Part shown: positions 1,295 to 15,776 of the stretch, piece after piece
Position numbering within the stretch: the stretch's first letter is position 1
Layout: the number at the start of each line of letters is the position of its first letter
Virus record (IMG/VR): IMGVR_UViG_3300005056_000002
Location: 1-64,000 of that record
DNA length: 64,000 nt
DNA from: a virus
Strand: one strand, 5' to 3'
Notes under the pieces: generated by a model
Seen by the model: only the letters and a program-made list of their open reading frames with translations
What the model was told of the DNA's origin: nothing
The model's database searches: none
Program-made: the position numbers and the translations under genes

Positions 1295-1873
1295 TTACTG
1301 TCTTGCTTTAAGTATTCTCTTTACATTACCTTCCTCTGCAAATATTACATAAGGTGCTTTATCCCATATGTGGTGTACACCAGTGAAATTAGCTCTACAT
1401 AGTTCATCTATATCCTTAAGACGCTGACTAGAGTGTAAATCATATCTAGTAAGTATAAGTATCTTATCTATGTCTGACCTAGGTATCATTGGTTCAAGCG
1501 TCAAAGGTAAATGCTCAATAGCTTTATATATCTCCGATGGAGAAGCTATAGGTGCTTTACTACCTACTATACATTCTGATACCTCTGTATAATAGATATC
1601 AAATGAAGTTGGGTGTACACTTATAAACATCCTGTCTTTACTATCAGGTGTGTATACTAACCATTCATCAATCTCTACTGTAAGTAAATCAATATAACTA
1701 TCTAATGTAGGTAGTTGTACTAAAGGCGCACCATCGTGGTCTACACCACCATAGATATTGTTCTGCTTCTCTTGTAACATAAGTATTACTCTATCCTTAT
1801 GCTTGTTTGTGAATTGAATAGCTTGTACTATCTTTCCATTTATGTCTGTATATTGTTTCATGATAATTTCCAT
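1295..1873 (-). CDS. hypothetical protein (188-192 aa)
   Basis: Longest ORF of the left block. A second ATG at 1861..1859 forms an ATGA overlap with the stop of 1858..2043, so 1861 may be the true start. Confidence 0.6.
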   Translation of the reverse strand: MEIIMKQYTDINGKIVQAIQFTNKHKDRVILMLQEKQNNIYGGVDHDGAPLVQLPTLDSYIDLLTVEIDEWLVYTPDSKDRMFISVHPTSFDIYYTEVSECIVGSKAPIASPSEIYKAIEHLPLTLEPMIPRSDIDKILILTRYDLHSSQRLKDIDELCRANFTGVHHIWDKAPYVIFAEEGNVKRILKARQ

Positions 1874-2043
1874 GTTTTATATACTGCGTACAGTATGATT
1901 AATACTCCTATTAGGAAGTGTATCGTTAGGGCTAGTATGTTTGGGTCGTATTCTGTTGGTGATACACCTAATGTCCACCCTAATGATGATATACATACTA
2001 CGACACCTATTGCTAGTATTTGTTCGGGTCTTAGATTCTTCAT
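1858..2043 (-). CDS. small 2-TM membrane protein, paralog A
   Basis: 61 aa. MKNLRPEQILAIGVVV... aligns with MKKKLRPEQILVIGLLV... of the next ORF, indicating a tandem duplicate. Confidence 0.5.
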   Translation of the reverse strand: MKNLRPEQILAIGVVVCISSLGWTLGVSPTEYDPNILALTIHFLIGVLIILYAVYKTWKLS

Positions 2044-2231
2044 ACCTTAGATGATCTATATGTTGCGTACAACATGATTAGTACTCCTATTATAAAGTGT
2101 ACTACTAATAGTATTACACACTTCATAAGCCCCATCCACTTAAGGTGCATAGCTATTATCCATGTCATTGATGATAAGCTTACTAGTAATCCTATTACTA
2201 GTATTTGTTCTGGTCTTAGTTTCTTCTTCAT
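2040..2231 (-). CDS. small 2-TM membrane protein, paralog B
   Basis: The track ORF extends to 2270, but the paralog alignment favours ATG 2231..2229 (63 aa). The stop forms an ATGA overlap with the start of 1858..2043. Confidence 0.5.
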   Translation of the reverse strand: MKKKLRPEQILVIGLLVSLSSMTWIIAMHLKWMGLMKCVILLVVHFIIGVLIMLYATYRSSKV

Positions 2232-2233
2232 GG

Positions 2234-2401
2234 TTATAAGTATATAAATGATAAGATTGTTGTTGCCCATATTAAACAGATGGAGACTAATACAAAAGCC
2301 TCTATTATCTCTTTATGTATTAGTTGTTCTAATGTTCTTATTACAGCAGATAATGATGCTCCTAGTAATGCTAATTGTATTATTATGTGTAGTGGGTTCA
2401 T
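2234..2401 (-). CDS. small hypothetical protein (55 aa)
   Basis: Hand-found, below the track cutoff: MNPLHIIIQLALLGASLSAVIRTLEQLIHKEIIEAFVLVSICLIWATTILSFIYL. ATGA overlap with the stop of 2398..2778. Confidence 0.3.
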   Translation of the reverse strand: MNPLHIIIQLALLGASLSAVIRTLEQLIHKEIIEAFVLVSICLIWATTILSFIYL

Positions 2402-2778
2402 GAGTTGTTAGTTTTAAATGTTCTATATTCTTCTTCTGTACCTTTAAATGTAATATGCTGTACAAGTACATAATACTCAATAGCATCTACTGCTAAGTTA
2501 TTAGTGTAGACATATCTTAGTCCACCATCCTCAACATACTTTAAGTATCTTAATAAACCATCTACCTCTATGTGTTGTAGGGCTATTAGTTGTATGTTTG
2601 GTGTGTTGTGTAACTTGTAGTGTCTAAGTGCAGCTTCTAGCTCTTGTCTTCTACCTGTTAGTTCAATACTCTTTACTTGGTGATTTAATCTTTCTCTAGA
2701 TATTGTATCAGCCTTCTTATCAGATGATATAATCTCTTCCTTTAGTTCTTTAATTCTTTTGTTTAGGTAGTCTTCCAT
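2398..2778 (-). CDS. hypothetical coiled-coil protein (126 aa)
   Basis: ATG ORF. The N-terminal half is heptad-like and charged (KRIKELKEEIISSDKKADTISRERLNHQVKSIELTGRRQELEAALRHYK). Confidence 0.55.
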   Translation of the reverse strand: MEDYLNKRIKELKEEIISSDKKADTISRERLNHQVKSIELTGRRQELEAALRHYKLHNTPNIQLIALQHIEVDGLLRYLKYVEDGGLRYVYTNNLAVDAIEYYVLVQHITFKGTEEEYRTFKTNNS

Positions 2779-2781
2779 GAG

Positions 2782-2970
2782 TTATGATATTATACGTTTA
2801 TATAGTTCATTCAGCACAACAGGTGCTAAATCATTTAATGGACTATTACCAAACTCTTGTTTGAACTCTTCTTGGTTATCATCCTTCCATTCTAATAGAG
2901 TATGGTATCTAGTTGTTAGTATACCATGACTCATGCCTATCATAGGACTTGGGTTATTCTTTGTTGACAT
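2782..2970 (-). CDS. hypothetical protein (62 aa)
   Basis: ATG ORF preceded by the CTAACAACTAAAC leader (2979..2991 on +). Confidence 0.5.
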   Translation of the reverse strand: MSTKNNPSPMIGMSHGILTTRYHTLLEWKDDNQEEFKQEFGNSPLNDLAPVVLNELYKRIIS

Positions 2971-2978
2971 ATGAGTGT

Positions 2979-2991
2979 GTTTAGTTGTTAG
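2979..2991 (-). repeat. conserved small-gene leader (CTAACAACTAAAC on minus strand)
   Basis: GTTTAGTTGTTAG on +, a 13/14 match to the copies at 3110 and 3231. Lies 8 nt upstream of the ATG of 2782..2970. Confidence 0.6.
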
Positions 2992-3100
2992 ACTTATTAG
3001 TGAAGAGTGTATTAATTATGAAGTATAGTATTGTTGACCCTACTCCTATTATTAGTATGTACTTTAGTATGAATAGTATTATTGTTAGTATTGTTTGCAT
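2981..3100 (-). CDS. tiny 1-TM protein (39 aa)
   Basis: Hand-found: MQTILTIILFILKYILIIGVGSTILYFIINTLFTNKSNN. ATG is preceded by the repeated leader. Its C-terminus (..NN stop) is encoded by the leader repeat of the next gene. Confidence 0.3.
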   Translation of the reverse strand: MQTILTIILFILKYILIIGVGSTILYFIINTLFTNKSNN

Positions 3101-3109
3101 AAGTTGTTT

Positions 3110-3123
3110 GTTTAGTTGTTTAG
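3110..3123 (-). repeat. conserved small-gene leader (CTAAACAACTAAAC)
   Basis: GTTTAGTTGTTTAG on +, upstream of ATG 3100. Also encodes the C-terminus and stop of 3112..3225. Confidence 0.6.
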
Positions 3124-3225
3124 TTTATTCTCTCTTCTGACTATTGATAGTATTGCTACTACCATTACTCCTATTAATACTAACGCTGCTAGTGTTAGTA
3201 CTATTATTGCTATTATTGGAATCAT
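3112..3225 (-). CDS. tiny 1-TM protein (37 aa)
   Basis: Hand-found: MIPIIAIIVLTLAALVLIGVMVVAILSIVRRENKLNN. Same leader and same ..NN stop ending as 2981..3100, suggesting a tandem module. Confidence 0.3.
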   Translation of the reverse strand: MIPIIAIIVLTLAALVLIGVMVVAILSIVRRENKLNN

Positions 3226-3230
3226 AAGGT

Positions 3231-3244
3231 GTTTAGTTGTTTAG
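3231..3244 (-). repeat. conserved small-gene leader (CTAAACAACTAAAC)
   Basis: GTTTAGTTGTTTAG on +, upstream of ATG 3225. A further partial copy TTAGTTGTTTA follows. Confidence 0.6.
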
Positions 3245-3275
3245 ATTAGTTGTTTATCACTAGATATTTCATCGG

Positions 3276-3302
3276 ACTCCCAATACTCTCTATTACAGGG
3301 AG
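3276..3302 (+). repeat. ACTCC-N-ACAGGG motif copy (non-coding)
   Basis: ACTCCCAATACTCTCTATTACAGGGAG, spacer 14. The ends can pair (ACTCCC/GGGAGT). Confidence 0.8.
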
Positions 3303-3347
3303 TTACGAAATGACCCTAAAAGCTTAGGATATACTGGACACCACATC

Positions 3348-3386
3348 GTAGTGGTCGTTTTGACTACGTGTAGTGGTCGTTATGAC
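3348..3386. repeat. tandem 17-nt direct repeat GTAGTGGTCGTTwTGAC x2 (period 22) with embedded hairpins
   Basis: Copies at 3348..3364 and 3370..3386. ACCAC-atcgta-GTGGT and GTGGTC-gttat-GACCAC inverted repeats overlap them. Confidence 0.7.
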
Positions 3387-3603
3387 CACTTGGATTCGCT
3401 GTAGCCCTTGCTATCATTGAGTTTGTATATATTCCTTTTAATACTATAATAGTGACCAAAATGAGTGCCATAAAAATATGACTCTGTGATAGGGTGAATA
3501 GGTGAATACATAATGATATAAAAAACCTACTGCCCCAAATAATAGATCGAAAATAACAAATAAGGACAGTAGGACAAATCAAAATGAAAAAACCTATGAT
3601 ATA

Positions 3604-3626
3604 CCCTGTACCAAACAAAGTGGAGT
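3604..3626 (-). repeat. ACTCC-N-ACAGGG motif copy (non-coding, minus strand)
   Basis: Reverse complement reads ACTCCACTTTGTTTGGTACAGGG, spacer 12. Only three G. Confidence 0.6.
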
Positions 3627-3737
3627 ACAAGGTGACATAAATGACGATAAACCACTAACAACCACCATGATATACCTGAAAATATGACAAAACAAGTAAT
3701 AATGGTGTGATGCTAGTGGAAGCTGTGATAGTGTAAG

Positions 3738-3766
3738 ACAAATGTGGACAAATGTACCACAAATGT
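3738..3766. repeat. ACAAATGT x3 at 10-11-nt (helical) spacing
   Basis: Copies at 3738..3745, 3748..3755 and 3759..3766. Iteron-like phasing in gene-free DNA. Confidence 0.6.
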
Positions 3767-3900
3767 AATGTGTAATGTATGATAGTGTGTGACACAAATA
3801 ACTGTACTAGCTGTGTGTGAAATGTGATGTGAGATAGTATATGGAACTAAGGCTGTAGTAGCTCTAAGTAAAGTAATATACTATAGATGTAAAAAATAGG

Positions 3901-3953
3901 CTAGGTAAGGTAAGTATGGAAGGTACTAGCAGCTGTAACTAGGTAAGGTAAGT
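3901..3953. repeat. 15-nt direct repeat CTAGGTAAGGTAAGT x2
   Basis: Exact copies at 3901..3915 and 3939..3953. Confidence 0.7.
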
Positions 3954-4263
3954 CGTAAACTGCGACATCTACGACCTTCCGAACCCTCTAACTAACTAAC
4001 TACTAAGCATACTCCTACGCTAAGTGTACCTAAAGTGTCTAAAGTACTATAATATCATAAACTCTATGGTATCTATGTCCTGTAGAGTGTGCCTTGGTGG
4101 CGTGTGAATGAATTTTTGTCATAAAAATAGCTCCAAAGACGAATCTAAGGAGCTAAAGGTATTGGGGACATGTAATATGTGGTCAGGGGCACAGTGTGTG
4201 CATACGTAGGAGTGGACATAGTGTGTGTTGCACCATGTCTTCACCCTCCCCCAAAGGTATATC

Positions 4264-4428
4264 CTACGTAATGTGGTGAAATGCTCTAACAGCTATGAAT
4301 ATACATATAACGCCAGCTAATACCACTAAAGGTATCTGTGTTGCTATAAGAATTAAACCTAGCATAAGTATTAGAACTATTTGCGCAACTAGTAATGAAA
4401 CTAGAAGGACTTGATGTATTGTCTTCAT
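4264..4428 (-). CDS. small 2-TM membrane protein (54 aa)
   Basis: Track ORF 4264..4452 begins with TTG. The first ATG (4428..4426) gives MKTIHQVLLVSLLVAQIVLILMLGLILIATQIPLVVLAGVICIFIAVRAFHHIT. Confidence 0.45.
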   Translation of the reverse strand: MKTIHQVLLVSLLVAQIVLILMLGLILIATQIPLVVLAGVICIFIAVRAFHHIT

Positions 4429-4461
4429 AATATTCTCTGTTATTGGATGCAAAGATAGTCA

Positions 4462-4641
4462 TTAGTTGACTATCAGTTGGGTTATAACTGTGAATATTAC
4501 GGTAATTGTTGCAAGCTTGGGATTCCTTGTAATTGAATCTATGCTGCTAACATGGGCTATAGAGTATTGTGGTAATGATGCTTGAATAGCATGTCCTATG
4601 TTCTTTCCTCTTTGTACTGTAATTGTATGTGATGTCTTCAT
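4462..4641 (-). CDS. small hypothetical protein (59 aa)
   Basis: Hand-found, one residue below the track cutoff: MKTSHTITVQRGKNIGHAIQASLPQYSIAHVSSIDSITRNPKLATITVIFTVITQLIVN. AACTAAC-type leader upstream. Confidence 0.3.
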   Translation of the reverse strand: MKTSHTITVQRGKNIGHAIQASLPQYSIAHVSSIDSITRNPKLATITVIFTVITQLIVN

Positions 4642-4690
4642 GTATGAGTATATTAGTAATGTTAGTTAAATCTCTGTTGTTACCAGAGGT

Positions 4691-4718
4691 AAAACCCACA
4701 CACCTTGCGATGTGTGGG
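4691..4718 (-). terminator. intrinsic terminator after 4726..5307
   Basis: Stem CCCACACA (4695..4702) / TGTGTGGG (4711..4718) with an 8-nt loop, followed on the minus strand by TTTT (4691..4694). Confidence 0.7.
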
Positions 4719-4725
4719 GATATTG

Positions 4726-5307
4726 TTAGTTTTGTGCAGCGTACTCTGCTTCCGCAGCAGCTTGAGTAGCATCATTTACTTCATATGTACCACCTGATGA
4801 ATTAATAGTTGTAGTTGGTTCAGCAACTACAGGTGCATAGATATCAGCGATACCAGCAGTAGCATCAGCAATAGCAAGTGCGTTCATTTGCAATGCTTGG
4901 TACTGCATGTTCTGCTCTAGTTCTAAGAACCCATCAACAACTCTTGCTTGGTCACGTTCTAATGTACGTTCGTCACCAACACTAGCAGTACCAAAGTCAG
5001 GATGTCCTACCTTCATACATAAACTGTCTTCTGTTACTTCCCACTTGTCACCCTTCTTAGAGTATTCGATGTTACCTTCTACGATACCACCTTTCAAGCC
5101 TTTGAACGCCATACGTACAGCAGGATGCTCAATGTTTTGTACGTTGTTACCAATTAAATACGAGTTCTTCAAGTCTTGAAGCATCTCTTTGGGTTTACGT
5201 ACAATTGCGGTCTTACCACATGTAGTCTTAATAACAGTTAAATTAATAACCTCACCTGCTGCGTTCTTATTGATTAACGCTACTGATTGTATTCTAGTCT
5301 TTACCAT
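4726..5307 (-). CDS. hypothetical protein (193 aa), likely strongly expressed monocistronic unit
   Basis: Clean ATG ORF followed within 8 nt by a hairpin plus T-run terminator (4691..4718). Ala/Glu-rich acidic C-terminus. No family recognised. Confidence 0.7.
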   Translation of the reverse strand: MVKTRIQSVALINKNAAGEVINLTVIKTTCGKTAIVRKPKEMLQDLKNSYLIGNNVQNIEHPAVRMAFKGLKGGIVEGNIEYSKKGDKWEVTEDSLCMKVGHPDFGTASVGDERTLERDQARVVDGFLELEQNMQYQALQMNALAIADATAGIADIYAPVVAEPTTTINSSGGTYEVNDATQAAAEAEYAAQN

Positions 5308-5367
5308 TGTTTTGGGATTAAAGAGTTATGATTGGCAATATGCCGTGTATTATAAAGAACCTCATGC

Positions 5368-5386
5368 AGTACGTGTCCAACGTACT
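5368..5386 (-). promoter_or_regulatory. 7-bp hairpin AGTACGT-gtcca-ACGTACT in leader of 4726..5307
   Basis: Perfect inverted repeat 61 nt upstream of ATG 5307 and 22 nt after the stop of the 5408..5509 ORF. No T-run, so its function is unclear. Confidence 0.3.
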
Positions 5387-5407
5387 ACACAAGGAATGAA
5401 ACGAAGC

Positions 5408-5509
5408 TTACGACCTCGATATGATTGATTGTATTATAAGGGTTATTATCCCTATCACTAGTGTTACTAGTCCTAGACCAATAAGCACTATACCTATTGA
5501 TACTAACAT
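5408..5509 (-). CDS. tiny 1-TM protein (33 aa)
   Basis: Hand-found: MLVSIGIVLIGLGLVTLVIGIITLIIQSIISRS. Its ATG overlaps the stop of 5503..5682 (ATGTTAG). Confidence 0.25.
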   Translation of the reverse strand: MLVSIGIVLIGLGLVTLVIGIITLIIQSIISRS

Positions 5510-5682
5510 GTAGTCACATTAGGTGTTGGAACAAGCTGCTCTATTGTGAATCCTATAAGGAACAAAGAAGCAATTGTCATGGCACTAAACCACAAGTTGT
5601 GTAAAGTCGCTAAAAAGAATAACGACAACACAGTCATAGTGAAGCCCAAGAGTAGCATCGCTACTAGTATAGAGGTTTTCAT
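5503..5682 (-). CDS. small 2-TM membrane protein (59 aa)
   Basis: Hand-found: MKTSILVAMLLLGFTMTVLSLFFLATLHNLWFSAMTIASLFLIGFTIEQLVPTPNVTTC. First gene left of the divergent region, with AACTAAAC leader at 5695..5702. Confidence 0.35.
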   Translation of the reverse strand: MKTSILVAMLLLGFTMTVLSLFFLATLHNLWFSAMTIASLFLIGFTIEQLVPTPNVTTC

Positions 5683-5706
5683 GATATTTATTGAGTTTAG
5701 TTAGCG

Positions 5707-5718
5707 GCAAACTAGTTG
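5707..5718. promoter_or_regulatory. operator-like repeat GCAAACTAGTTG (core palindrome AACTAGTT), copy 1
   Basis: Exact 12-mer repeated at 5861..5872 within the divergent intergenic region. Confidence 0.45.
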
Positions 5719-5860
5719 AAACCTAGTACAAAGAGGTACGGGTGGTTCGATTGCCAAGACTTAGCTATGGGTTCTATTGAAGGTGGTTCAGTCTCTCAGA
5801 AATTCACACAAAAAAATATATAAATTTTTTTACTTACACCTTACCTAGACAGCACAGTAC

Positions 5861-5872
5861 GCAAACTAGTTG
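5861..5872. promoter_or_regulatory. operator-like repeat GCAAACTAGTTG, copy 2
   Basis: Exact repeat of 5707..5718, 154 nt away. Followed by several GTGTC half-sites (5872, 5886, 5920, 5948). Confidence 0.45.
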
Positions 5873-6004
5873 TGTCCTTAGTTCGGTGTCCTAGTACAGC
5901 GTAGTCTTTCAAATCCTTGGTGTCAAATACTATCTTATGTCTTTCAGGTGTCTCAGAGCCTTCCCCCAATCAATCCTCGCCCCAAATCCAATAAATCCCC
6001 TCAG

Positions 6005-6030
6005 ACTCCACTATCTTCTCTTACAGGGGG
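6005..6030 (+). repeat. ACTCC-N-ACAGGG motif copy (intergenic, 134 nt upstream of 6164 gene)
   Basis: ACTCCACTATCTTCTCTTACAGGGGG, spacer 13. Confidence 0.85.
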
Positions 6031-6163
6031 AATATTAAGGAACACGCACGCACGAATACAAATAAAATACGACATACACAAATAAATCTTTCAAACCGCT
6101 TGGCACTACCACACTAAAACCGTATCTTTACCATTCATAACAGTTTAACTAAAACCAACTAAT

Positions 6164-6655
6164 ATGGAGAACACTATTACAGATGTTAAAGACCTTAGAG
6201 TAAGGTTAGACGTAATACTAAATGCTTTACAGCAACTACCTAAGAACAGAAACGCATCATTAGCCTTTACCTCTACGGAGAAGAGTAGAATGTACATGGG
6301 TAAGTTATTAGGTGTATTAGGTACTGAATACCCTTATGAAGCAACCAAGACAGCTACTAAGGCTTCTGAGATTGACGAACCTACTGATAAAGGTGAGAAA
6401 GTAATCATATTATCAGGAGAAGAGATTAAAGACTTGGTAGGGTTAAGAAAGATGCTTAACACAGAGTTAACTAATTTCTTGGAAGTTGCTTTTGGAGCAG
6501 GCGAGACTAATGGTATTACATTAGCTAAGGACGCTAGTGCATTAACTAAGTTCAAGATGAACTCTATTGTATCTGAGGTATATAGAGGTCTATGTGAAGG
6601 TAGTATGTATTTAGGTTTACAACTAGGGGAGATTAAGGCTAAGGATGGAGAGTAA
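6164..6655 (+). CDS. hypothetical protein (163 aa)
   Basis: First ORF of the rightward gene train. ATG is preceded by AACTAAAACCAACTAAT. No motif recognised. Confidence 0.6.
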   Translation: MENTITDVKDLRVRLDVILNALQQLPKNRNASLAFTSTEKSRMYMGKLLGVLGTEYPYEATKTATKASEIDEPTDKGEKVIILSGEEIKDLVGLRKMLNTELTNFLEVAFGAGETNGITLAKDASALTKFKMNSIVSEVYRGLCEGSMYLGLQLGEIKAKDGE

Positions 6656-6902
6656 TATCTTTATTAAAGCTAAAGGAGAACAAGGTACTTTATATATTAA
6701 AGTACCTGACTCTCTTATCGAGAGCTTATGTGATGTCCTTCATGAGGGTAATCATGTAGTAGGAGCTAGTAATCCTTTACAATGGGATTACAACATAGAG
6801 TTGGGTGACAGTTATGAGATAATGACTATAGAAGAGGTGAGGACGTTCGCAGAACAGAGTCATGTTAATAATGTAAATATATTAAAAAGAGAAACAGTAT
6901 GA
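6645..6902 (+). CDS. hypothetical protein (85 aa)
   Basis: Co-directional ORF with 11-nt overlap to the upstream gene. Confidence 0.55.
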   Translation: MESNIFIKAKGEQGTLYIKVPDSLIESLCDVLHEGNHVVGASNPLQWDYNIELGDSYEIMTIEEVRTFAEQSHVNNVNILKRETV

Positions 6903-7822
6903 AGTACGATGTAAAATACCACGTTAACTTAGAGGAAATGGTGGATGCTTTTATAGAAAGGCTTAATAAGAATTGTGAAGAAGTAGGCATAAAGAAAGTA
7001 TATGAAGTTGTTATTAAGAAGGGTACGTTTAAAAGTGATACAACTGTTGGTGATAGCAGTAAGACTACACAACCATTTAAGACCATTGTATTCTCTGTGG
7101 TTAACTTAGAGAATAGAGACAAGATAGTATTGTATAGTACAGATTATAGAGTAAGTAATCCTGCACAATGGCTAAGTACTCCTTGGAGAAAGAAGATGTA
7201 TGGAGAAGTATTGTTTAACTGTTTGTTAGGGTATGGTGCTTTAGCAGAACAGCAATTGTTGGCTGAGAGACTTAGGTCTTCCCCTGTAAAGGATAAGGGT
7301 GGAGTAGAAGAGTCCAAGCCTGTAGAGTCAGAGCAGAAGATAGCTAGGGATGATTTAAGTGCTGTAGATGAAGCACTAGATGAAATGGAGAAGGAAGCAG
7401 GAGAGAAGCTTGAAAGGAAGCATCCTCTAGTAGTAAGTGATAATGGTGAGGAAGTACACTTGAATGAAGAGGACTACCAAGCATGGTTAAAAGAGAATGA
7501 TATAGTAGAGGGAGAGGCTAAACTAGAAGATGGTCCAAAGCAGGTACTACCTCTACAAGGTATACGTGCAGAAGATATAGGATTAAAAGGAAAGCCTATG
7601 GAGATAGTAATGACTGAGTCTTGGCAACCTACAGAAGCTGAGAGTAAGAAGATAGAGTATGATGTAACTGAAGAGAAGATGATGGAGACAGTTGAGAAAG
7701 TCTTTAAAGAGAACCCTATGCCTGTATATGTAACAGGTCCAGCAGGTCATAAGGCTATTAATGAAGCTATGAAAGTAGAAGCTAATAAAAGATACGGTAC
7801 AGATGGAGAAGAAAGAAATTAA
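6899..7822 (+). CDS. hypothetical acidic protein (307 aa)
   Basis: ATGA overlap with the upstream stop. The C-terminal half is rich in Glu/Asp/Lys. Confidence 0.6.
   Translation: MKYDVKYHVNLEEMVDAFIERLNKNCEEVGIKKVYEVVIKKGTFKSDTTVGDSSKTTQPFKTIVFSVVNLENRDKIVLYSTDYRVSNPAQWLSTPWRKKMYGEVLFNCLLGYGALAEQQLLAERLRSSPVKDKGGVEESKPVESEQKIARDDLSAVDEALDEMEKEAGEKLERKHPLVVSDNGEEVHLNEEDYQAWLKENDIVEGEAKLEDGPKQVLPLQGIRAEDIGLKGKPMEIVMTESWQPTEAESKKIEYDVTEEKMMETVEKVFKENPMPVYVTGPAGHKAINEAMKVEANKRYGTDGEERN
7281..7305 (-). repeat. ACTCC-N-ACAGGG motif copy (antisense inside 6899..7822)
   Basis: Reverse complement reads ACTCCACCCTTATCCTTTACAGGGG, spacer 13. Confidence 0.8.
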
Positions 7823-8036
7823 GATAAACCCTGTAGGAAGTATACCCCTTATGACTATACAAGAGAGGGCTGATTGGGGTGTTAAGTGGCAAAGAGAATG
7901 GATGGAAGCATCTAATAAGATGGGCGTTAAAATAAAGAACGCTACACTTAGTGAAGAAGAGTATAATTATGTAACAGACCCTTTAGGTCTTAAAGGTAAA
8001 GACTCTAAGCTTACATTAAAACCATCCAATGGCTAA
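7803..8036 (+). CDS. hypothetical protein (77 aa)
   Basis: Co-directional ORF. Ends ..KPSNG stop inside the 22-nt junction repeat. Confidence 0.5.
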   Translation: MEKKEIKINPVGSIPLMTIQERADWGVKWQREWMEASNKMGVKIKNATLSEEEYNYVTDPLGLKGKDSKLTLKPSNG

Positions 8037-8038
8037 GA
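8017..8038 (+). repeat. 22-nt gene-junction repeat TAAAACCATCCAATGGCTAAGA, copy 1
   Basis: Contains the ..KPSNG stop of the upstream gene and the overlapping ATGGCTAAG start of the next gene. Confidence 0.8.
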
Positions 8039-8154
8039 GCAACCAACTACAACATGTACCTATATGGAAGATTCCAGCTAGGACAAAGGAGCAAGATGCT
8101 AGGTGGGAAGAAGTATGGAAGAAGTGTACTAACATAAAACCATCCAATGGCTAA
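8029..8154 (+). CDS. small hypothetical protein (41 aa), not in ORF track
   Basis: Hand-found: MAKSNQLQHVPIWKIPARTKEQDARWEEVWKKCTNIKPSNG. Fills the gap between 8036 and 8147. Its start and end both lie in copies of the junction repeat TAAAACCATCCAATGGCTAAGA. Confidence 0.35.
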   Translation: MAKSNQLQHVPIWKIPARTKEQDARWEEVWKKCTNIKPSNG

Positions 8155-8156
8155 GA
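8135..8156 (+). repeat. 22-nt gene-junction repeat, copy 2
   Basis: Exact copy 118 nt downstream of copy 1. Confidence 0.8.
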
Positions 8157-8614
8157 TTAAAGAAGAAGAACTTTACTCCCTGCAAGAAGTTCAAAACGAG
8201 TTAAGGGCTATAGGTGCAGACCTATCCTTAGCTGAAATAACGGATATCTGTAAGAGTCCGTTGATAGCTACTACCTTTGCAATGAACAGAGGTGTAGACG
8301 TTAGACTTCCTGTATGGGGTACACTATTACGGAAGCATAGGTATGTAATAGGATTAAAGCAGAAAGCTTTATTAGAAATGAAAGGTATCATACCTGATGG
8401 CGAGTATCACGAAATGCGTAAGATGCTTGCTAAGGCGCATAAGAGACAGCTAAGTAAGATACCAAAGGTAGATATAGAAGAGTTACTAGCTCTACCTAAG
8501 ATACATAGGAGTAGTCATAGATATGATAAGCTGGTAGAGAATCAGACTTACGTACCATTGGCATACTATTACGATGAAGATACAAGAACATTCATAAAGA
8601 AAGAAGATGAATAA
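8147..8614 (+). CDS. hypothetical protein (155 aa)
   Basis: Co-directional ORF that starts in the second copy of the junction repeat (MAKI...). Confidence 0.55.
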   Translation: MAKIKEEELYSLQEVQNELRAIGADLSLAEITDICKSPLIATTFAMNRGVDVRLPVWGTLLRKHRYVIGLKQKALLEMKGIIPDGEYHEMRKMLAKAHKRQLSKIPKVDIEELLALPKIHRSSHRYDKLVENQTYVPLAYYYDEDTRTFIKKEDE

Positions 8615-9287
8615 AGATTTTGATAAGTTATTCACCATCAAAGATGGAGAGCTGTTATTGAACAAGCATGACTTAAGGATGATACCCGAGTTCAAGCTGA
8701 TGTTCGCAATGGACAAGGGTAGGGAAGGGGACTTTGATGCTAGGAAGAAGACACACTCTTTTACCTTCATTAAGTTCATGTACTTCTACTATCACCCTAT
8801 GAGTGCTTTCGTAGACATGCCTGACGAGAAGAGAAAAATACGTAGTATGGTTGCTTCTGACTTAAGAGGGGTAAAGGGTGAGCCTTGGGTAATCAATAAG
8901 TACGAAGCACCTGTATTGAAAGTATACTTAGAGCTGATAGAGATTGATGCTTTGTTCAAGACTTATATTAATGCACGTAGGTCTGTGTATAATATGGGAG
9001 AGGATATAGAGTTCTTCAACAAGTTAAGAGAGGTTAACAAGAAGAAGATAATGACTTATACTGAGCAATTGGAGAAAGCGTCGGGAGAAGAGGAACTAGG
9101 ACTACAACAAAGTGTTGAAGCTGCAACAGTTGCTTTGATGAACTCAGGTAATCAGATACTAACTATAACTAATAATCTAGCTAAAGCCTATGATGTTATC
9201 AAGGTGTTAAAGACTAAGTTGTTAGAAGCTAACAATGAAGGTAGTGCTTTGAAAGGTGGTGGAGACTTAGGGAACAGAGAAAGGTAA
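8607..9287 (+). CDS. hypothetical protein (226 aa)
   Basis: Co-directional ORF with 8-nt overlap upstream. Confidence 0.55.
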   Translation: MNKDFDKLFTIKDGELLLNKHDLRMIPEFKLMFAMDKGREGDFDARKKTHSFTFIKFMYFYYHPMSAFVDMPDEKRKIRSMVASDLRGVKGEPWVINKYEAPVLKVYLELIEIDALFKTYINARRSVYNMGEDIEFFNKLREVNKKKIMTYTEQLEKASGEEELGLQQSVEAATVALMNSGNQILTITNNLAKAYDVIKVLKTKLLEANNEGSALKGGGDLGNRER

Positions 9288-9625
9288 TGAGGTTTCCTAT
9301 AATAGTTAATGTAGAAATGAGTGACAGGTTTGGAAACAATAACATTGTAGCAAACATTGTAGACTTTGATAACGATAGGATAGAACAAGTGATAAACGAG
9401 GGTGGTAATTTTACTACCCTTGCTTATTACAATAAGAGATACATCAAGGTGATGATACCTTTTAAGGAAGTATATGAAATGCTACAACTGCAAACAACTA
9501 TACTAGATACATTTGAAGAAGAGACGCTTGCCTATGCAGATTCTAATTGGAGTGAGTATAAGGCATCTATACTAAAAGAGAAACGTAATGATAAAAGAAA
9601 CGGAGAAGGTCCAACTACTGTTTGA
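9287..9625 (+). CDS. hypothetical protein (112 aa)
   Basis: TAATG stop/start overlap with the upstream gene. Confidence 0.5.
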   Translation: MRFPIIVNVEMSDRFGNNNIVANIVDFDNDRIEQVINEGGNFTTLAYYNKRYIKVMIPFKEVYEMLQLQTTILDTFEEETLAYADSNWSEYKASILKEKRNDKRNGEGPTTV

Positions 9626-10601
9626 CGCACCTACACATGTATACAGTGATACTAAGGGTAGAGTCTACACTAGTGCAACTACTGTAATAGGTAAGTACAA
9701 GAAGCCTTTCAATAAGAAGTACTGGGGTATGTATACCATGTTGAAGAACAAAGGTATCAAGGTACGTCCTGATGGTGGTAAAGATAAGGTTATCTTTATA
9801 AGTGGTGTTCCTAGTAAGCTAAGTCAGCTATGGGGTTATCCTTCTTATGCTTGGGAAACAGAAATGCTATTTGCTAAGTGGGATAAGATGACAGAGGATG
9901 CTTGTGATAGAGGTAATGAGATACATGACTACTTAGAGGACAGTATAAACCTAAGTAAGGATGATGTAGCTGCTGAGAGTAATGATGTTATCCAACCAAG
10001 TCTAGGTACTGCTATGGCAGGTCAAGACTTCGTAACTATTGCTACAAGGCACGATTTGGACCGAACTACAATAAAAGAACGATTTCCGATAGTTTATTTT
10101 AAATTATTGAAGTATATTAATCAAGGATGCACTATATTCGCAGAGAAGAAGATTTATAGTAGTACGTACCTGATTGCAGGAATGATTGATGTATTAATCG
10201 TAAAAGGTAAGCAATTCGCTATCTTGGATTGGAAGACCAACAAAGATGAAATGCACTTTCAAAGTGGCTACTATAAGAAGATACAGAGGAACGGTATATG
10301 GATTAAGTCTGAACAGTTCTTAAGGACTGACAATACGTTGTTAGCACCTTTGAACCATATAGCTGAATGTAAAGGTATGGTGTATACCTTACAGCTAAGT
10401 CTGTATGCTTTCATCATGGAAATGTGGGGATATACATTAGTACCTGATGGGTTAATAATATGTCACATGAGACCTGGACTAGAGCCTAAGATGGTTAACA
10501 TAGCATATAAGCAGAGAGAGATACAGGATATGCTTAATCACCACATAGGTAAAGTAGTTACACCAAAGAAGAAAGGATTGCAATTCGGGATATTTAAGTA
10601 G
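9588..10601 (+). CDS. PD-(D/E)XK (RecB/Cas4-like) nuclease
   Basis: Ordered RecB-family motifs: N-terminal H-x-Y..S-A-T-T-V, EIHDYLE, GMIDVLIV...FAILDWKTNK (D...D-x-K) and the QxxxY motif in YTLQLSLYAF. Confidence 0.75.
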   Translation: MIKETEKVQLLFDAPTHVYSDTKGRVYTSATTVIGKYKKPFNKKYWGMYTMLKNKGIKVRPDGGKDKVIFISGVPSKLSQLWGYPSYAWETEMLFAKWDKMTEDACDRGNEIHDYLEDSINLSKDDVAAESNDVIQPSLGTAMAGQDFVTIATRHDLDRTTIKERFPIVYFKLLKYINQGCTIFAEKKIYSSTYLIAGMIDVLIVKGKQFAILDWKTNKDEMHFQSGYYKKIQRNGIWIKSEQFLRTDNTLLAPLNHIAECKGMVYTLQLSLYAFIMEMWGYTLVPDGLIICHMRPGLEPKMVNIAYKQREIQDMLNHHIGKVVTPKKKGLQFGIFK

Positions 10602-10627
10602 ACTCCCACTCTTCCTATTACAGGGGG
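10602..10627 (+). repeat. ACTCC-N-ACAGGG motif copy (intergenic, 21 nt upstream of 10648 gene)
   Basis: ACTCCCACTCTTCCTATTACAGGGGG followed by AGAAAC, spacer 13. Confidence 0.85.
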
Positions 10628-10647
10628 AGAAACATAAATATAAAAGG

Positions 10648-11154
10648 ATGAAAAAAGTATTGTTTGTAAACCTAGATGGAACTCTAGTGGTTACAGAGAG
10701 TGGACGACCCTACCCCTTACACAGTAAGGATTGGAAGTTCATTAATGAAACACTCTTCGCTATCAAGTTTTACTTGAAGAAAGGGTACAAATTGGTTATA
10801 GTGTCTAACCAAGATGGGGTAGCTAAAGGCTTCGTATCAGAAGAGGTGATAGTAGGTAAGTTAGAAACTATCTGTAAGAAGATAGAGGAAGGCTTCCAAC
10901 TAGAAGAGAATAGCGTAGTCTATGCTTACTGTATAGATGGAGAAGGATTTAAACATAGTCCAAACCCAGGGATGGTATACGAGATACTAGTTGATGAAGA
11001 ACTAGGATTAAAGAATAGTATTATGATGGGTAGTATTCCTGATGATTTCTTATTTGCTTCTAATGTAGGAGTCTCTCAGTACATGGATATAGCTTACATA
11101 CTAGCCGAGGACTGGAAACATAACATACAGCAGCTAAATGCATCTAGCCTATAA
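10648..11154 (+). CDS. HAD-superfamily phosphatase-like protein (GmhB / PNKP 3'-phosphatase-like subfamily)
   Basis: Motif I-like FVNLDGTLV, with Asn where the nucleophilic Asp is expected. Motif II VIVSNQDGVAKG matches the TNQ-G-(I/V)-x-(R/K)-G signature. Late acidic GSIPDD. Confidence 0.6.
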   Translation: MKKVLFVNLDGTLVVTESGRPYPLHSKDWKFINETLFAIKFYLKKGYKLVIVSNQDGVAKGFVSEEVIVGKLETICKKIEEGFQLEENSVVYAYCIDGEGFKHSPNPGMVYEILVDEELGLKNSIMMGSIPDDFLFASNVGVSQYMDIAYILAEDWKHNIQQLNASSL

Positions 11155-13393
11155 GAGCTACGAGACTATTCAGCAGATGCCCGATAACCTATTAGGTTCG
11201 TTACAACGTGACGAATCTTTTGGCGTTTTAACTGATGTCTATACTAAGGAGGAAAGAGAAGGCGAAGATGCCTTGTACACCCCTAAAGATATAGTCTTCT
11301 ACGGTACAGCTGAGTTTAGCGCAGCAGGTAATCTTTGGCTAGAGAAGGGTTACTATACGGACTACCACCCAGTCTACGACAAACAAGAGTATGACGCATT
11401 TTGGGATGGAGAAGAAGTAAAGAGAAGGGAAGGACATACCTTACCGTGTTCTGTTGTTAAAAGGAAGGATGGGAGTTACACACTCCAAGATCTTCATATT
11501 ACAGGGGAACATTACGGGTACTTAAACTATGCTCCTATAAAGAGAGTAGCGAAGGAGACTATGGAAGAGATCGAGAGGTTGCTTCTATTAGGGGAGAACG
11601 TTGACCACTTGGCAGAGCAGAAAGTTAAGACCTTACCACAGTTCTACGATAGTGATTACTACTACTTTAAAGTAGTAGACCTAGCAAGGTCTGTAGGTAG
11701 ACACTTAGTAGTAGGTAAAGCAAGGCGTAAAGGATATTCATATAAGAATGGATGGATTGCGGCTAACAGGGCTGACTTATATAGAGAGACTGTAACAGCA
11801 TTAGCAGCGTTCCACTCGGACAGTTTATATCCCGAGGGTACAATGCAAATGACCAATGACTACTTGCAGCATATTGCTAAGGAGACAGATTGGAAGAAGC
11901 GAAGGCTTAAGGATAAAGAAGACTTTATCAAGTTCGGGTATAAGAAGAACGATGGATTAGGAGTTGAGTATGGATTTAAGAGTGTAGTATTAGCTACTAG
12001 TTTTGCACCAAACAATGCAGGTGCATTAAGAGGGAAGTCTGCTGATTTCATGATGATTGAGGAAGCAGGTAAGAACCCTATACTAGCTGCGGTACTTGCG
12101 AGTACGTTGCCTACCTTGAAAGCAGGGGTAACGTTGAGTGGTCTACTTATTGTGTTTGGTACTGGTGGTGGAGAAGATAAACAATGGGAAGGATTCGAAG
12201 ACTTATTCTATGCGCCTAGTGCTGATGGATTCTTATCAATGAACAACATATGGGACGAAGGTGAGTTAGGAACTGAATGTGGTTTCTTCGTACCTAGTTA
12301 CATGGGTAAAGAAGGATTTGTAGATATACACGGTAACAGTAATGTTAAAGGTGCTGTAATCTACGAGGAAGGCGAAAGGACTAAGAAACGTAAGTCTAAG
12401 TCTGCTAAGAAGCTTACGGATTATATAATGGAAGAACCATTTAATCCTAAGGAAGCATTTAGTAGAGATAGTAGTGGGTTGTTTCCAGGTGAACAACTAG
12501 AGGAACAATTGAAGAGGGTACAGAGAGATCCAATGCTAAGAGCCTTACATAAGAATGGTAACTTGATTGATACTCCTAAAGGGGTGAAGTTCAAGGATTC
12601 TATGTTTATGGATAAGGATGAACTTAAGCACTTCCACCCACCTATTATAAACTTTCCTATAAAGAAAGGAGACGATGCGTATGGGTGTTTCACTATGTGG
12701 AGTATGCCTTATAGAGATAGGGTAACAGGTAAGATACCTGATAGTCTCTATAGGATAGTACATGATCCATTTGCTTTGAGTAAAGATACTAAGGACGTTA
12801 CTAGTCGAGATTCATTAGGTTCTTTCTATGTATATGAGAGGACTAATAATATCACAGGTGGATTAGGTGATAGGTTGGTCGCTGCCTTTAATGGTAGACC
12901 GCCTACTACTGTAGAGTTCAATGATATCTTATTTAGAGCAGCAGATTATTACAATGCTGTTATTCAGTTTGAGAATGACAGGGGAGACGTTTACTCTTAT
13001 GCTAGAGGGAAGAAGTGGCTACACAAGTTAGCTGACGAACCCGAAGTATTATGGAAGAAGGCTTTACAGTCTAAGACTGGTAGTCGAAAGAAAGGAATCA
13101 CCATTAACGTCAATAGAAAGTTAGAGGGTGTGGTATACTTGCGAGATTGGTTATTAATGCCAAGAGGTAAGGGAGAAAACGGAGGAACTTTACTAAATTT
13201 GCATTATATTTACGATGAAGCCTTACTAAAGGAATTATTGAGGTATAACTTGAACAAAGGTAACTTCGATAGGGTGTCTTCTATGATTGTACTGATGTAT
13301 GATATAAGGGAACTAGTACACACTAAGATAAGGAAACCACCTCCACCACCTTCACATGGTGGACAAGGAGTATTTGATAGAGATTTATTTTAA
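11138..13393 (+). CDS. terL: terminase large subunit
   Basis: 751 aa. Walker-A-like VVGKARRKGYS, Walker-B-like ADFMMIEEAG, and a C-terminal half with acidic nuclease-like motifs (RIVHDPF, IQFENDRGD). Lies directly upstream of a portal-size gene. Confidence 0.8.
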   Translation: MHLAYKSYETIQQMPDNLLGSLQRDESFGVLTDVYTKEEREGEDALYTPKDIVFYGTAEFSAAGNLWLEKGYYTDYHPVYDKQEYDAFWDGEEVKRREGHTLPCSVVKRKDGSYTLQDLHITGEHYGYLNYAPIKRVAKETMEEIERLLLLGENVDHLAEQKVKTLPQFYDSDYYYFKVVDLARSVGRHLVVGKARRKGYSYKNGWIAANRADLYRETVTALAAFHSDSLYPEGTMQMTNDYLQHIAKETDWKKRRLKDKEDFIKFGYKKNDGLGVEYGFKSVVLATSFAPNNAGALRGKSADFMMIEEAGKNPILAAVLASTLPTLKAGVTLSGLLIVFGTGGGEDKQWEGFEDLFYAPSADGFLSMNNIWDEGELGTECGFFVPSYMGKEGFVDIHGNSNVKGAVIYEEGERTKKRKSKSAKKLTDYIMEEPFNPKEAFSRDSSGLFPGEQLEEQLKRVQRDPMLRALHKNGNLIDTPKGVKFKDSMFMDKDELKHFHPPIINFPIKKGDDAYGCFTMWSMPYRDRVTGKIPDSLYRIVHDPFALSKDTKDVTSRDSLGSFYVYERTNNITGGLGDRLVAAFNGRPPTTVEFNDILFRAADYYNAVIQFENDRGDVYSYARGKKWLHKLADEPEVLWKKALQSKTGSRKKGITINVNRKLEGVVYLRDWLLMPRGKGENGGTLLNLHYIYDEALLKELLRYNLNKGNFDRVSSMIVLMYDIRELVHTKIRKPPPPPSHGGQGVFDRDLF
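11482..11507 (+). repeat. ACTCC-N-ACAGGG motif copy (inside terL, codon phase 2)
   Basis: ACTCCAAGATCTTCATATTACAGGGG, spacer 14. Confidence 0.8.
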
Positions 13394-13402
13394 ATTAGAT
13401 AT

Positions 13403-15742
13403 ATGAACGTACTGCCAAGACAGAAACAGACAAGGGCACAAAAGGCTATAGTAGACCCTGTAACGGGTAAGTCCTTTTGGCACAACAATGTGGACTACTA
13501 TGCAGACCAAGTACTAACAGCTGACCGTGACGACATACTAAGACAGTATAGAGTCACGGAAGGACTGATGGATGATAAAGCTTATAATTACGTATTGAAC
13601 CCACTTAATACCACAGTAGATAGGTATAAGAGATTTGGTAGTACACTACGTAACTTTGATATAATCGGACCTGTTATTAACTTATACGCAGGAGAGTTCA
13701 ATCAGAGGTTTAAGAACATACAAGTACTGGATAGTAATCCAGGTGATGACAATAGATACAAAGAGGGATTACACTCTATGATTATTGAGCATTACCAAGC
13801 AGAGACAGTTATGAATCTAGCTAAGCTAGGTTTAGAGATTGGGGATAGTCCCGAAGAGCAACAAGAGTTGCAGAGTAAAGTAGAGGTATACAATAGAGAC
13901 TTTGATAGTAATAGAGTTATTACAGGTCAAGAGATTCTAGACTATATAGCATATGACCAAGATATTGATGACAAGCATCAAGATGGTTATATAGATTGGT
14001 TGAAGTGCGGAAGAGTAGTTACATATAAGGGAGTATTCCACGATGATGTAGATTACGAGTCTGTACCGCCTTGGGAGTATACTAGTCCTAAAGGAGGTAA
14101 AGGTAGAATGTTAGAAGATGATGCATGGGGAGTCAGAAGACAAGTCATGGGTATCAATGACATTCTAGACAGATGGCACGACAAGATGTCTGAGGAAGAC
14201 GTAGAGTGGTTAGAAGCTAGGCATCAAGAGACAGGCTTCCATCAAAGTACAGGGTTTGTACAACTACCATCCGAATGGATGTCTAAGTCTGACGACTATA
14301 ATAAGAAGTCAAGCTTAGCCCAAGTAGATGGATTAGAAGTATTCCACGTACAATGGAAGAGTTTCAAGAAGATGGGTATAGTAAAGAGACAAGATACAAT
14401 GGGTCAAATCATTGAAGTTGATGTCCAAGACGACTATGTACTTAATCCCAAAGCAGGAGATTTAGATCTTGAATGGGGATGGATTAGTACAGTCTGTGAG
14501 GGATGGAGAATAGGTGATGATAGTAATGCTATCTATATTGACTTAAGAGAGTTGCCTTATAATAGAATGTCTCTTAATAACAAGTCTGAGCAAAAGTTAT
14601 CATACAATGGTAGGTACAATCAAACTCGAACAGGTAAGATTATCAGTATAGCGTCTCTAGGTGAGAACTACCAAGTCTTGTATAATATTGCTCACTATCA
14701 GTTTGAGAAGTTAATCAATAAGCACAAAGGTTCTATTAAAGTAATCCCAATCGGTCTTATACCTAAAGGTGTAGAAGGATGGGATGAAGAGAAGTTTATG
14801 TATTACACACATGCTAGTGATACAATGTTTATAGATGAAACTTCTCCTACTGCTGGAATTGCTATTAACGGTATGAAAGTACTTAGTGGTAGTGCAGGAC
14901 AAGAGATAAGAGAAGCTATTGAATTGCTACAAAGTATAAAATCTGAGTGGTGGGAATCAATAGGTATGAACAGGCAGCGATACGGAGACTCCAAAGCGAG
15001 CGATGGAAAAGCAGTAACCGAACAGGCGATTTTCAGAAGTGCAATCATTAGTGACGAGCTAAATAGAAAATTTGAAAAATTTCAGGAAAAAGATTATGCA
15101 GGTTTGCTAGATATTAGTAAATTAGCGTATCTTAATGGAAAGAAAGCTAAGTACATCAATTCAGATAGTAGAGAAGCCTTTCTTAGAGTTAACCCTGACG
15201 ATGCAGTTCATCACTTAGAGTCTGACTACAATATCTTTGTTAAGAACAGTAGGAAAGAGAATGAGAACATTGAAATGGCTAGAGAGTATGGGTTTAGTTT
15301 AGGACAGAACGCAGAAGCTGAAATGATGATGGAGTTGATAGGAAGTAGTAACTTTACTAAGACTAAGGACATCATTAAGAGGATAGACAAAGCTGCTCAA
15401 CAAAGAGAGCAAAGTGCTGCACAAGCTGATAGAGAAAGTAATGAAGCTATTGCTGATGCACAAAGACAAAGTGAACAAGCTGATAGAGAGTTACGTAAGT
15501 ATGAAGCTGATAAAGGGTACGATAAAGTACTTGACAGTACCATGCTAAAGATGAATCAAGAAGCTGACGTTGCTGAACCTGCCGATAACGCACCTGATAC
15601 TGAGACTGTTCGTATGAACGACCACAAAATCAATAGCGATGGTAAGGCACATAATCTTGCTACACAAGATTTAGAATTAAAGAGAAAGAAGGTAGCTGCT
15701 GATATTGCTAAAGGCAAGATGCAGAAAGCTACGGCAAAGTAA
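13403..15742 (+). CDS. portal protein (putative)
   Basis: 779 aa, immediately after terL and before the scaffold-like and capsid-size genes. Charged coiled C-terminal tail. Call rests on position and size only. Confidence 0.6.
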   Translation: MNVLPRQKQTRAQKAIVDPVTGKSFWHNNVDYYADQVLTADRDDILRQYRVTEGLMDDKAYNYVLNPLNTTVDRYKRFGSTLRNFDIIGPVINLYAGEFNQRFKNIQVLDSNPGDDNRYKEGLHSMIIEHYQAETVMNLAKLGLEIGDSPEEQQELQSKVEVYNRDFDSNRVITGQEILDYIAYDQDIDDKHQDGYIDWLKCGRVVTYKGVFHDDVDYESVPPWEYTSPKGGKGRMLEDDAWGVRRQVMGINDILDRWHDKMSEEDVEWLEARHQETGFHQSTGFVQLPSEWMSKSDDYNKKSSLAQVDGLEVFHVQWKSFKKMGIVKRQDTMGQIIEVDVQDDYVLNPKAGDLDLEWGWISTVCEGWRIGDDSNAIYIDLRELPYNRMSLNNKSEQKLSYNGRYNQTRTGKIISIASLGENYQVLYNIAHYQFEKLINKHKGSIKVIPIGLIPKGVEGWDEEKFMYYTHASDTMFIDETSPTAGIAINGMKVLSGSAGQEIREAIELLQSIKSEWWESIGMNRQRYGDSKASDGKAVTEQAIFRSAIISDELNRKFEKFQEKDYAGLLDISKLAYLNGKKAKYINSDSREAFLRVNPDDAVHHLESDYNIFVKNSRKENENIEMAREYGFSLGQNAEAEMMMELIGSSNFTKTKDIIKRIDKAAQQREQSAAQADRESNEAIADAQRQSEQADRELRKYEADKGYDKVLDSTMLKMNQEADVAEPADNAPDTETVRMNDHKINSDGKAHNLATQDLELKRKKVAADIAKGKMQKATAK

Positions 15743-15776
15743 TTTAATAATAGAGTTATAACTAATAATAAAGATT

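Follow-up and report, generated by a model that had tools for sequence, protein, structure and literature searches.

Two flagged motif copies in a crAss-like phage belong to a genome-wide family of bipartite DNA elements

The window considered here is a stretch of 64,000 nucleotides (nt), positions 1 to 64,000 of the IMG/VR virus record IMGVR_UViG_3300005056_000002, from an uncultured crAss-like phage (as judged by a match to the Crassvirus capsid family and by the terL and portal genes). A preliminary description had singled out two copies of a short motif, at 6005..6030 and 10602..10627, as promoters at the head of rightward gene modules. Motif copies are present at exactly these places, but they are two of about 25 in a genome-wide, phage-specific family and not simply two operon promoters. 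The motif, GACTCCAC-N9-13-TTACAGGGGRA, is bipartite and asymmetric and certainly represents a DNA-level signal under selection that is peculiar to this phage sublineage. The family itself is more interesting than the two-promoter claim: it is a concrete and testable candidate for the sequence that a polymerase of the Crassvirales, or some other phage protein, recognizes.

A motif family selected at the DNA level

The family can be delimited with a simple regular expression, CTCC.{8,18}[CT][AT][CT]AGGG, which matches 12 times on the plus strand and 6 times on the minus strand of the window, where dinucleotide shuffles lead one to expect 1.35 in total; inside the rightward genes 8 of its matches are sense and 5 antisense, compared with 0.25 and 0.68 in codon-shuffled genes. 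An 88,467-bp ENA scaffold and a JGI contig carry the identical DNA, and some 20 kb of the genome beyond the window was read as two segments, L010 (1..10000) and L011 (10370..20369), which hold seven further copies and bring the number to 25. The genome scans cover ~84 kb of the 88.5-kb genome, all but contig positions 45073-50409 (5.3 kb). A profile hidden Markov model (HMM) built from the 25 aligned copies recovers 17 robust copies (at least 14.6 bits) and one marginal copy in the window and, over the ~84 kb, 24 robust matches that score 14.6-29.1 bits and are set apart from everything else; 50 triplet-shuffled genomes yield no match of 14.6 bits or more, with a top score of 11.8. The consensus under the relaxed pattern is GACTCCAC-nnTnTTCT-ATTACAGGGGAA. 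Conservation is strongest in CTCC and ACAGGG, and the distance between these two boxes varies from 12 to 16 nt, with a mode of 13.

The element is unstructured: RNAalifold finds no pairs in the 25 aligned copies, flanking repeats or hairpins common to the copies are absent, and neither known RNA families nor tRNAs match anywhere in the window or in L010 and L011, which around the non-coding copies holds even for a cutoff of E<=1. A hairpin-type element, a terminator or a REP is ruled out by this lack of a consensus structure. Outside the phage, IMG/VR gives four single matches and GTDB 36, all consistent with chance, and no contig with multiple copies was found elsewhere in IMG/VR or in 185,579 bacterial and archaeal genomes.

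The two flagged copies are both on the plus strand and oriented towards the downstream genes. The copy at 6005..6030 (ACTCCACTATCTTCTCTTACAGGGGG; HMM match 6003..6033, 26.4 bits) lies in a divergent non-coding region, 133 nt 5' of the ATG at 6164, and points at the gene that starts there. The copy at 10602..10627 (ACTCCCACTCTTCCTATTACAGGGGG; HMM match 10600..10630, 23.4 bits) takes up 26 of the 46 bases between an exonuclease-like gene and a HAD-type gene: it begins directly behind the TAG of the former and is followed on its 3' side by AGAAACATAAATATAAAAGG-ATG, making the spacer mostly motif plus a short A-rich leader. The open reading frame (ORF) after this spacer encodes a PNK3P/HAD-type phosphatase, and terL, portal and the Crass-type capsid gene come next, as had been described. 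The two copies differ by an indel; they have in common GACTCC(C)A, a pyrimidine-rich stretch and TTACAGGGGG, whose exact form is found at these two places only.

How far does the signal extend among relatives? Across 26 related loci (387 kb; capsid identity 49-76%) there are a few weak intragenic matches and none in spacers; GenBank phages are only distant relatives, with capsid identity below 40%. De novo searches by k-mer and self-BLAST revealed no analogous family in the relatives, with the limit that self-BLAST barely recovered the window's own motif and thus had low power. At the exonuclease-HAD boundary, relatives at ~70% amino acid identity have neither spacer nor motif; in two of the loci (L001 and L014) the genes abut or overlap, so that there is no spacer at all. 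The nearest relative (L083, sample ERZ23498651; nucleotide identity 82% in the capsid region and 72% in the exonuclease-HAD region) has a 50-nt spacer at the same place. This spacer keeps AGACTCCCA (9/9), TTACAGGGG (9/9) and the A-rich leader AGAAACATAAA, and its inner pyrimidine-rich stretch has diverged; the motif is thus conserved in one spacer of the nearest relative. No further contigs of this relative were retrieved: cluster mates were not found, and the 514-residue protein is without a close homologue.

Within genes, the sense copies occupy all three reading frames, with the first box frame-shifted relative to the second, and the antisense copies always lie in the one stop-free frame. 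Two sense copies are superimposed on conserved peptides. The copy at 39160 overlies S/T-Y-x-T-x-G-G-x-L-x-P, which a protein alignment shows to be conserved among homologues of 41-45% identity, and the copy at 11482 in terL overlies the conserved LQDLHITGEHYG; neither adds residues. It follows that the choice of codons and residues, and not insertion, created these copies where they stand, and the use of all three frames together with the superposition on conserved peptides means that selection acts on DNA. In-frame insertion of a mobile element is ruled out for both sites on the same grounds, and a mobile mini-element (MITE/REP/RPE-like) is further disfavored by the lack of inverted-repeat structure.

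Could the family still be an artefact, that is, a repeated peptide, a product of codon usage or the scar of an in-frame MITE-like element, with no functional DNA element behind it? Several sense copies do encode T-P-P-S-S-x-T-G-like peptides in low-complexity regions, and the copy at 15946 lies in a variable region of this kind, where an insertion is conceivable. However, the copies are spread over three frames and both strands, six of them are non-coding, the codon-shuffle controls fall far below the observed counts, the copies in conserved peptides have no extra residues, flanking repeats and hairpins are absent from the family, and multiple copies occur on no bacterial or viral contig elsewhere. 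A peptide repeat or codon artefact is ruled out by the frame, strand and shuffle results, and we regard this whole explanation as effectively refuted and scarcely credible.

The terL copy calls for a qualification. Its codons CTC/CTT/GGG are shared with two relatives only (L014 and L017), which are no closer to this phage than relatives with TTA/TTA/GGA; because these two have the same codons, the synonymous changes are weakened as evidence of lineage-specific selection, and the site may be older or may have been selected independently. The terL-internal sequence (CTC CAA GAT CTT CAT ATT ACA GGG GAA) recurs unchanged in a relative with 29% GC and 69% amino acid identity, and the same motif-like sequence is absent in seven other relatives. 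The conservation of synonymous sites (11482-11510, L014, L017) could mark an older functional site within terL.

Possible reading by a phage RNA polymerase

What could recognize such an element? Our preference, a tentative one, is that a phage-directed RNA polymerase recognizes the motif sequence-specifically and initiates there, on either strand. The most plausible enzyme would be the gp66-type polymerase of the giant ORF 43079..58534, the last gene of the rightward train. In the proposed mechanism, the enzyme would bind through the upstream box GACTCCAC, the A/T- and pyrimidine-rich stretch of 9-13 nt would be the part that melts, and RNA chains would begin within the G run of TTACA-GGGG(A/G)A or immediately before it, on the motif-bearing strand. 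Sense copies (6003, 10600, 15946, 23848, 32600, 39160 and others) would launch or replenish transcription in the long gene trains, which are nearly free of spacers, and antisense copies might give rise to antisense or primer RNAs.

The giant ORF encodes 5151 amino acids, by far more than the 2180 of phi14:2 gp66. Homology to the phi14:2 gp66 virion RNA polymerase lies at 50489..51895 on the plus strand (6VR4 chain A, E=6e-27, query residues 2471-2939), with DFDAD at residue 2926 instead of DFDID, and an ART-PolyVal ADP-ribosyltransferase domain (residues 1496-1611) is fused with the polymerase in the same ORF. This segment is the only polymerase candidate for reading the motif, to which we can link it by inference. 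A T7-like polymerase had no Pfam, PHROG or PDB match among the proteins scanned (~84 kb) and was set aside as a reader; an 808-residue ORF proved to be a repeat ORFan.

A promoter fits the anatomy of the motif, in which a conserved box, an A/T-rich stretch and a G run follow one another. It also fits the distribution in part: six of the 25 copies fall in non-coding DNA, which makes up 6% of the sequence (P=0.003), and four of these six point at downstream genes. The phage has its own polymerase and appears to lack host-type promoters, and a spacer has been created and kept at the boundary between recombination and packaging/structural genes, all of which the promoter reading accommodates. For the two flagged copies the promoter proposal thus retains support in their orientation, the conserved spacer and the polymerase. 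The argument from placement, on which the preliminary description had leaned, fails: the motif is not confined to spacers, most copies are within ORFs and many are antisense, and since copies of equal or better quality are spread through ORFs on both strands, the placement of these two is not distinctive. Nor do they occupy the only sizeable spacers, as had been stated, the rightward train having spacers of 73, 99 and 125 nt as well.

Host-type promoters were sought in several forms. Sigma-70-type promoters (TTGACA/TATAAT-like, 16-18 nt apart) show no excess in 1..20000 (58 found, 65 expected) and none coincides with the motif boxes, whose 12-16-nt spacing is too short. The pattern TTG-N18-21-TAnnTTTG, derived from the middle/late promoter regions of the phi14:2 genome (where an A-tract comes first) and representing the phi14:2/Bacteroidetes type, has no match in any spacer of the window, and the motif is without such blocks; as a positive control, the pattern recovers six spacers 5' of phi14:2 middle/late genes (g070, g075, g092, g093, g108, g110), four of which are published middle promoters. 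An N4-type hairpin promoter (5-7 bp stem, 3-nt loop, in the template strand) is not indicated either, as RNAalifold gives no pairs. It is accordingly very improbable that only the two flagged copies matter, as host sigma-dependent promoters, and that all the others are incidental look-alikes. The centre of many copies is indeed -10-like (TATATT or TATCTT, 8-9 nt 5' of the G run), but the strong conservation is in CTCC and ACAGGG and not in this centre, a -35 or -33 partner was not found at a permissible distance, and the supposed look-alikes are not incidental, with 24 copies against 0 expected and scores at least equal to those of the spacer copies.

Three known promoter systems bear on the proposal. 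In the Thermus phage P23-45, two gp66-like two-barrel polymerases use conserved promoter motifs, AT-rich for the virion polymerase and GC-rich for the non-virion polymerase (PMC10770324). The present phage likewise encodes a gp66/QDE-1-like polymerase and has a conserved phage-specific motif, unrelated to the host promoter consensus, with copies ahead of gene blocks. The P23-45 motifs were defined from mapped start sites and chromatin immunoprecipitation; the motif described here comes from sequence, and it is mostly intragenic and about half antisense. The middle/late promoters of phi14:2 and the beta-crassvirinae resemble it as recurrent motifs of Crassvirales in spacers ahead of structural genes, but their sequence (A-tract, TTG, N18-21, TAnnTTTG; read by the host polymerase) is unrelated, and a published search for phi14:2-type motifs in crAss-like genomes gave 137 hits that were overwhelmingly intergenic and sense. 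The T7-group promoters (TAATACGACTCACTATAGGGAGA) have a comparable architecture: they are asymmetric, have GACTC in the binding box and an A/T-rich part before the G-run start, and number about two dozen per genome; one copy here reads TATTACGACTCCGCTATATTCTATTACAGGGGGAA. In the motif, however, ~10 additional bases separate box and G run and the spacer length varies, and T7 promoters without exception follow the orientation of the genes and hardly ever lie inside them.

Against a promoter stands a series of observations that the reading does not naturally accommodate. Nineteen of the 25 copies lie within ORFs, and 14 copies run in the direction of local transcription and 11 against it. The 19 intragenic copies divide into 10 sense and 9 antisense, versus ~14:5 under orientation-neutral placement (P=0.03), an expectation that follows because the sense orientation has three open frames and stop codons leave the antisense orientation only one; this suggests that antisense copies are actively favored, beyond simple tolerance. 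Copies within genes or in antisense reach the same scores as those in spacers, the top scorer lies within the giant ORF, and three sense copies sit deep inside this last gene of the rightward train. No copy is found directly 5' of the capsid gene or after the terminator-bearing spacers, and a sense spacer copy at 16355 in L011 is situated between a stop codon and a terminator hairpin, that is, upstream of the hairpin. A promoter thus gives no natural account of copies that are nearly half antisense and three-quarters intragenic at full strength. The precedent within Crassvirales points the same way: in phi14:2, gp66 transcribes the replication module, its early transcripts lack a shared upstream motif, and the host polymerase serves the middle and late genes (10.1101/2020.03.07.982082).

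Possible DNA tags or regulator sites

If the sense of transcription matters so little, does the motif need to be transcribed from at all? It may instead be an orientation-independent DNA tag, read by a phage protein on the DNA itself and unrelated to mRNA synthesis; site-specific nicking, priming or an origin, packaging or discrimination of self DNA, and architectural binding are candidate functions, and the density of sites would then matter, as for the uptake signal sequences of Haemophilus and Neisseria. We consider this possible and a nearly equal rival of the promoter reading, and it accounts better for the antisense and intragenic copies. The random orientation relative to transcription, the near parity of intragenic copies despite the 3:1 open-frame advantage of the sense strand, the equal quality of copies within and outside genes and their construction by codon choice in conserved coding sequence are all what a tag would lead one to expect. 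So is the spacing, which is Poisson-like (from the copy positions, 5 gaps below 1 kb versus ~6 expected). Two convergent pairs also agree with a tag. One, 3274(+)/3627(-), is arranged around a hairpin with an 18-bp stem; the other, 16355(+)/17254(-) in L011, consists of nearly identical 28-nt copies 899 bp apart and adjoins weak replication-initiator-like and helicase genes. Both flank non-coding or small-gene segments, and the stretches they enclose are hairpin- and AT-rich.

A tag, however, stands for a class of mechanisms and not for a single one, the proteins scanned yielded no candidate enzyme for it, and it leaves unexplained why a spacer consisting almost wholly of the motif arose and was retained at the exonuclease-HAD boundary, facing the packaging genes. 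The nick sites of T5, the phiKMV-like phages and tf (CGACxxxxxCCTA/CTCCGG; TACT/RTGMC), whose function is unknown, provide a close parallel, being short specific sequences scattered over the genome, coding regions included; the phiKMV site is bipartite like the motif. All known nick systems mark one strand only (PMC3517423). The copies described here, unlike them, divide in absolute terms into 16 on the window's plus strand and 9 on the minus strand.

Neighboring-copy distances show two clusters. Three are 5953, 5901 and 5931 bp, the last of which spans the unread 5.3-kb segment and may not separate true neighbours, and five fall between 4290 and 4466 bp. This near-regularity (~4.3 kb and ~5.9 kb) may be due to chance, and we do not take it as evidence.

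Asymmetric motifs that are carried in dozens of copies, and tolerated in ORFs by choice of codon or peptide, are familiar from the uptake signal sequences (USS) of Haemophilus, the DNA uptake sequences (DUS) of Neisseria and the stoperators of Cluster A mycobacteriophages. The first two are found in competent bacteria, where they function in the uptake of DNA; USS are used in both orientations and have an extended consensus of ~30 bp with a conserved core. Stoperators are 13 bp long, co-oriented with transcription and bound by the prophage repressor. They suggest a further option, in which the motif copies are sites for a phage transcription regulator (an operator or roadblock, stoperator-like) that would modulate elongation or timing in both modules. 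Some two dozen asymmetric sites genome-wide, in short spacers and in ORFs and with an enrichment in non-coding DNA, would suit such a regulator. Yet we think it improbable: stoperators follow the direction of transcription and the orientation here is random, neither a repressor-like nor a helix-turn-helix protein was detected among the proteins scanned, and a spacer that varies from 12 to 16 nt is awkward for a rigid binder of duplex DNA.

There is also a broader notion, which we hold to be somewhat unlikely: a virulent crAss-like phage may keep a ~30-bp self-recognition motif every ~3.5 kb, on both strands, by codon selection, to be read by an injected gp66-type polymerase or another virion or early protein. 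If this is true, a polymerase of the Crassvirales would for the first time have a defined recognition sequence, or else the order would prove to contain a DNA-tag system (nicking or priming) not described before. For transcripts of the crAss-type virion RNA polymerase, the model phage phi14:2 has given no motif; the present genome offers a sharply defined candidate element in 24 copies together with its own gp66-type polymerase and without host-type promoters, so that a direct test is possible. Should the motif prove not to be transcriptional, it would be an unusual case in a lytic phage of a long asymmetric signal in conserved coding sequence on both strands, and would point to an unrecognized DNA transaction in Crassvirales (nicking, priming, self-marking).

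Copies and neighboring features along the genome

The genes fall into a rightward train (6164..58534) and a leftward module of replication type, which continues around the circular map. Two copies precede the train in a 1-kb non-coding stretch: 3274..3306 (plus strand, 17.8 bits) is antisense to the leftward module, with a long hairpin (3349-3392) ~45 nt downstream, and 3599..3627 (minus strand, 14.6 bits, the weakest robust match) is sense to that module and convergent with the former. Behind the divergent region, 7276..7306 (minus, 22.8 bits) is antisense in ORF 6899..7822. The terL copy, 11482..11510 (plus, 18.5 bits), is sense, as is 15946..15977 (plus, 26.3 bits) in ORF 15777..17138, 1.2 kb 5' of the capsid gene; the latter is ORF 17173..18672, which matches the Crassvirus major capsid family and has terL and portal genes on its 5' side. 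ORF 23004..24209 contains a sense copy at 23848..23879 (plus, 21.1 bits). Two divergent copies share ORF 32092..32769, 32331..32362 (minus, 23.9 bits) being antisense and 32600..32627 (plus, 20.7 bits) sense. A variant with ATAGGGG lies at 38527..38558 (minus, 25.9 bits), antisense in ORF 34892..38710, and the copy over the conserved peptide, 39160..39189 (plus, 23.6 bits), is sense in ORF 38717..40261.

The giant ORF holds five sites. Three are sense: 48016..48046 (plus, 20.9 bits), 50074..50107 (plus, 20.5 bits), which lies just 5' of the RNA-polymerase-homologous part, and 54849..54880 (plus, 29.1 bits), the best score in the genome. The copy at 56624..56653 (minus, 17.4 bits) is antisense, and so is the motif-like site at 45034..45064 (minus), which is marginal, its 11.0 bits being at chance level (best shuffled score 11.8). 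Last in the window comes a TTTCAGGGG variant at 63655..63685 (plus, 17.9 bits), antisense in the leftward ORF 63392..63955.

The spacers of the rightward train that had been overlooked lie at 18673-18745 (73 nt) and 21834-21932 (99 nt), each with a clear hairpin and T-run as in a terminator, and at 30851-30975 (125 nt), which has a hairpin but lacks a clear T-run. With 58535-58732 and spacers in L010 and L011 they conform to a common type, in that most spacers other than the flagged ones carry a terminator-like hairpin plus T-run. These sites are usually only 15-30 nt ahead of the next ATG. The leftward module resembles a series of short units chained via leaky terminators, and no recognizable promoter stands behind the terminators.

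The 1-kb stretch with the first convergent pair, 3226-4263, is AT-rich and without called genes; its 18-bp-stem hairpin at 3349-3392 has z=-2.2 for a 105-nt segment. It is possible that this stretch is the counterpart of the highly transcribed long intergenic regions of phi14:2, or an origin. A second short sequence, GGTGGTTC(G/A), recurs in non-coding control regions (5741-5748 and 5782-5789 in the window; 16322-16350 in L011) and has only one occurrence outside them, on the minus strand of the giant ORF at ~49133. In L011 it folds as a hairpin resembling a tRNA T-arm (GGGTGGTTCGAGTCCACCC), 11 nt 5' of a motif copy. Neither ARAGORN nor Rfam finds a tRNA at these sites, which may be decayed tRNA remnants or a second signal.

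Two ORFans close the survey. An ORF for 193 amino acids at 4726-5307 (minus strand) is enclosed by strong terminator-like hairpin sites at 5394-5360 and 4718-4695 (minus), an arrangement that suggests a separately and highly expressed early gene. The ORFan of 808 residues at 13345-15771 in L011 has no Pfam or PDB match and is built around five tandem repeats of ~85 residues (KGEYIVI...NYCFKQRE...NWRYATTDE...KPF); it adjoins two intergenic motif copies.

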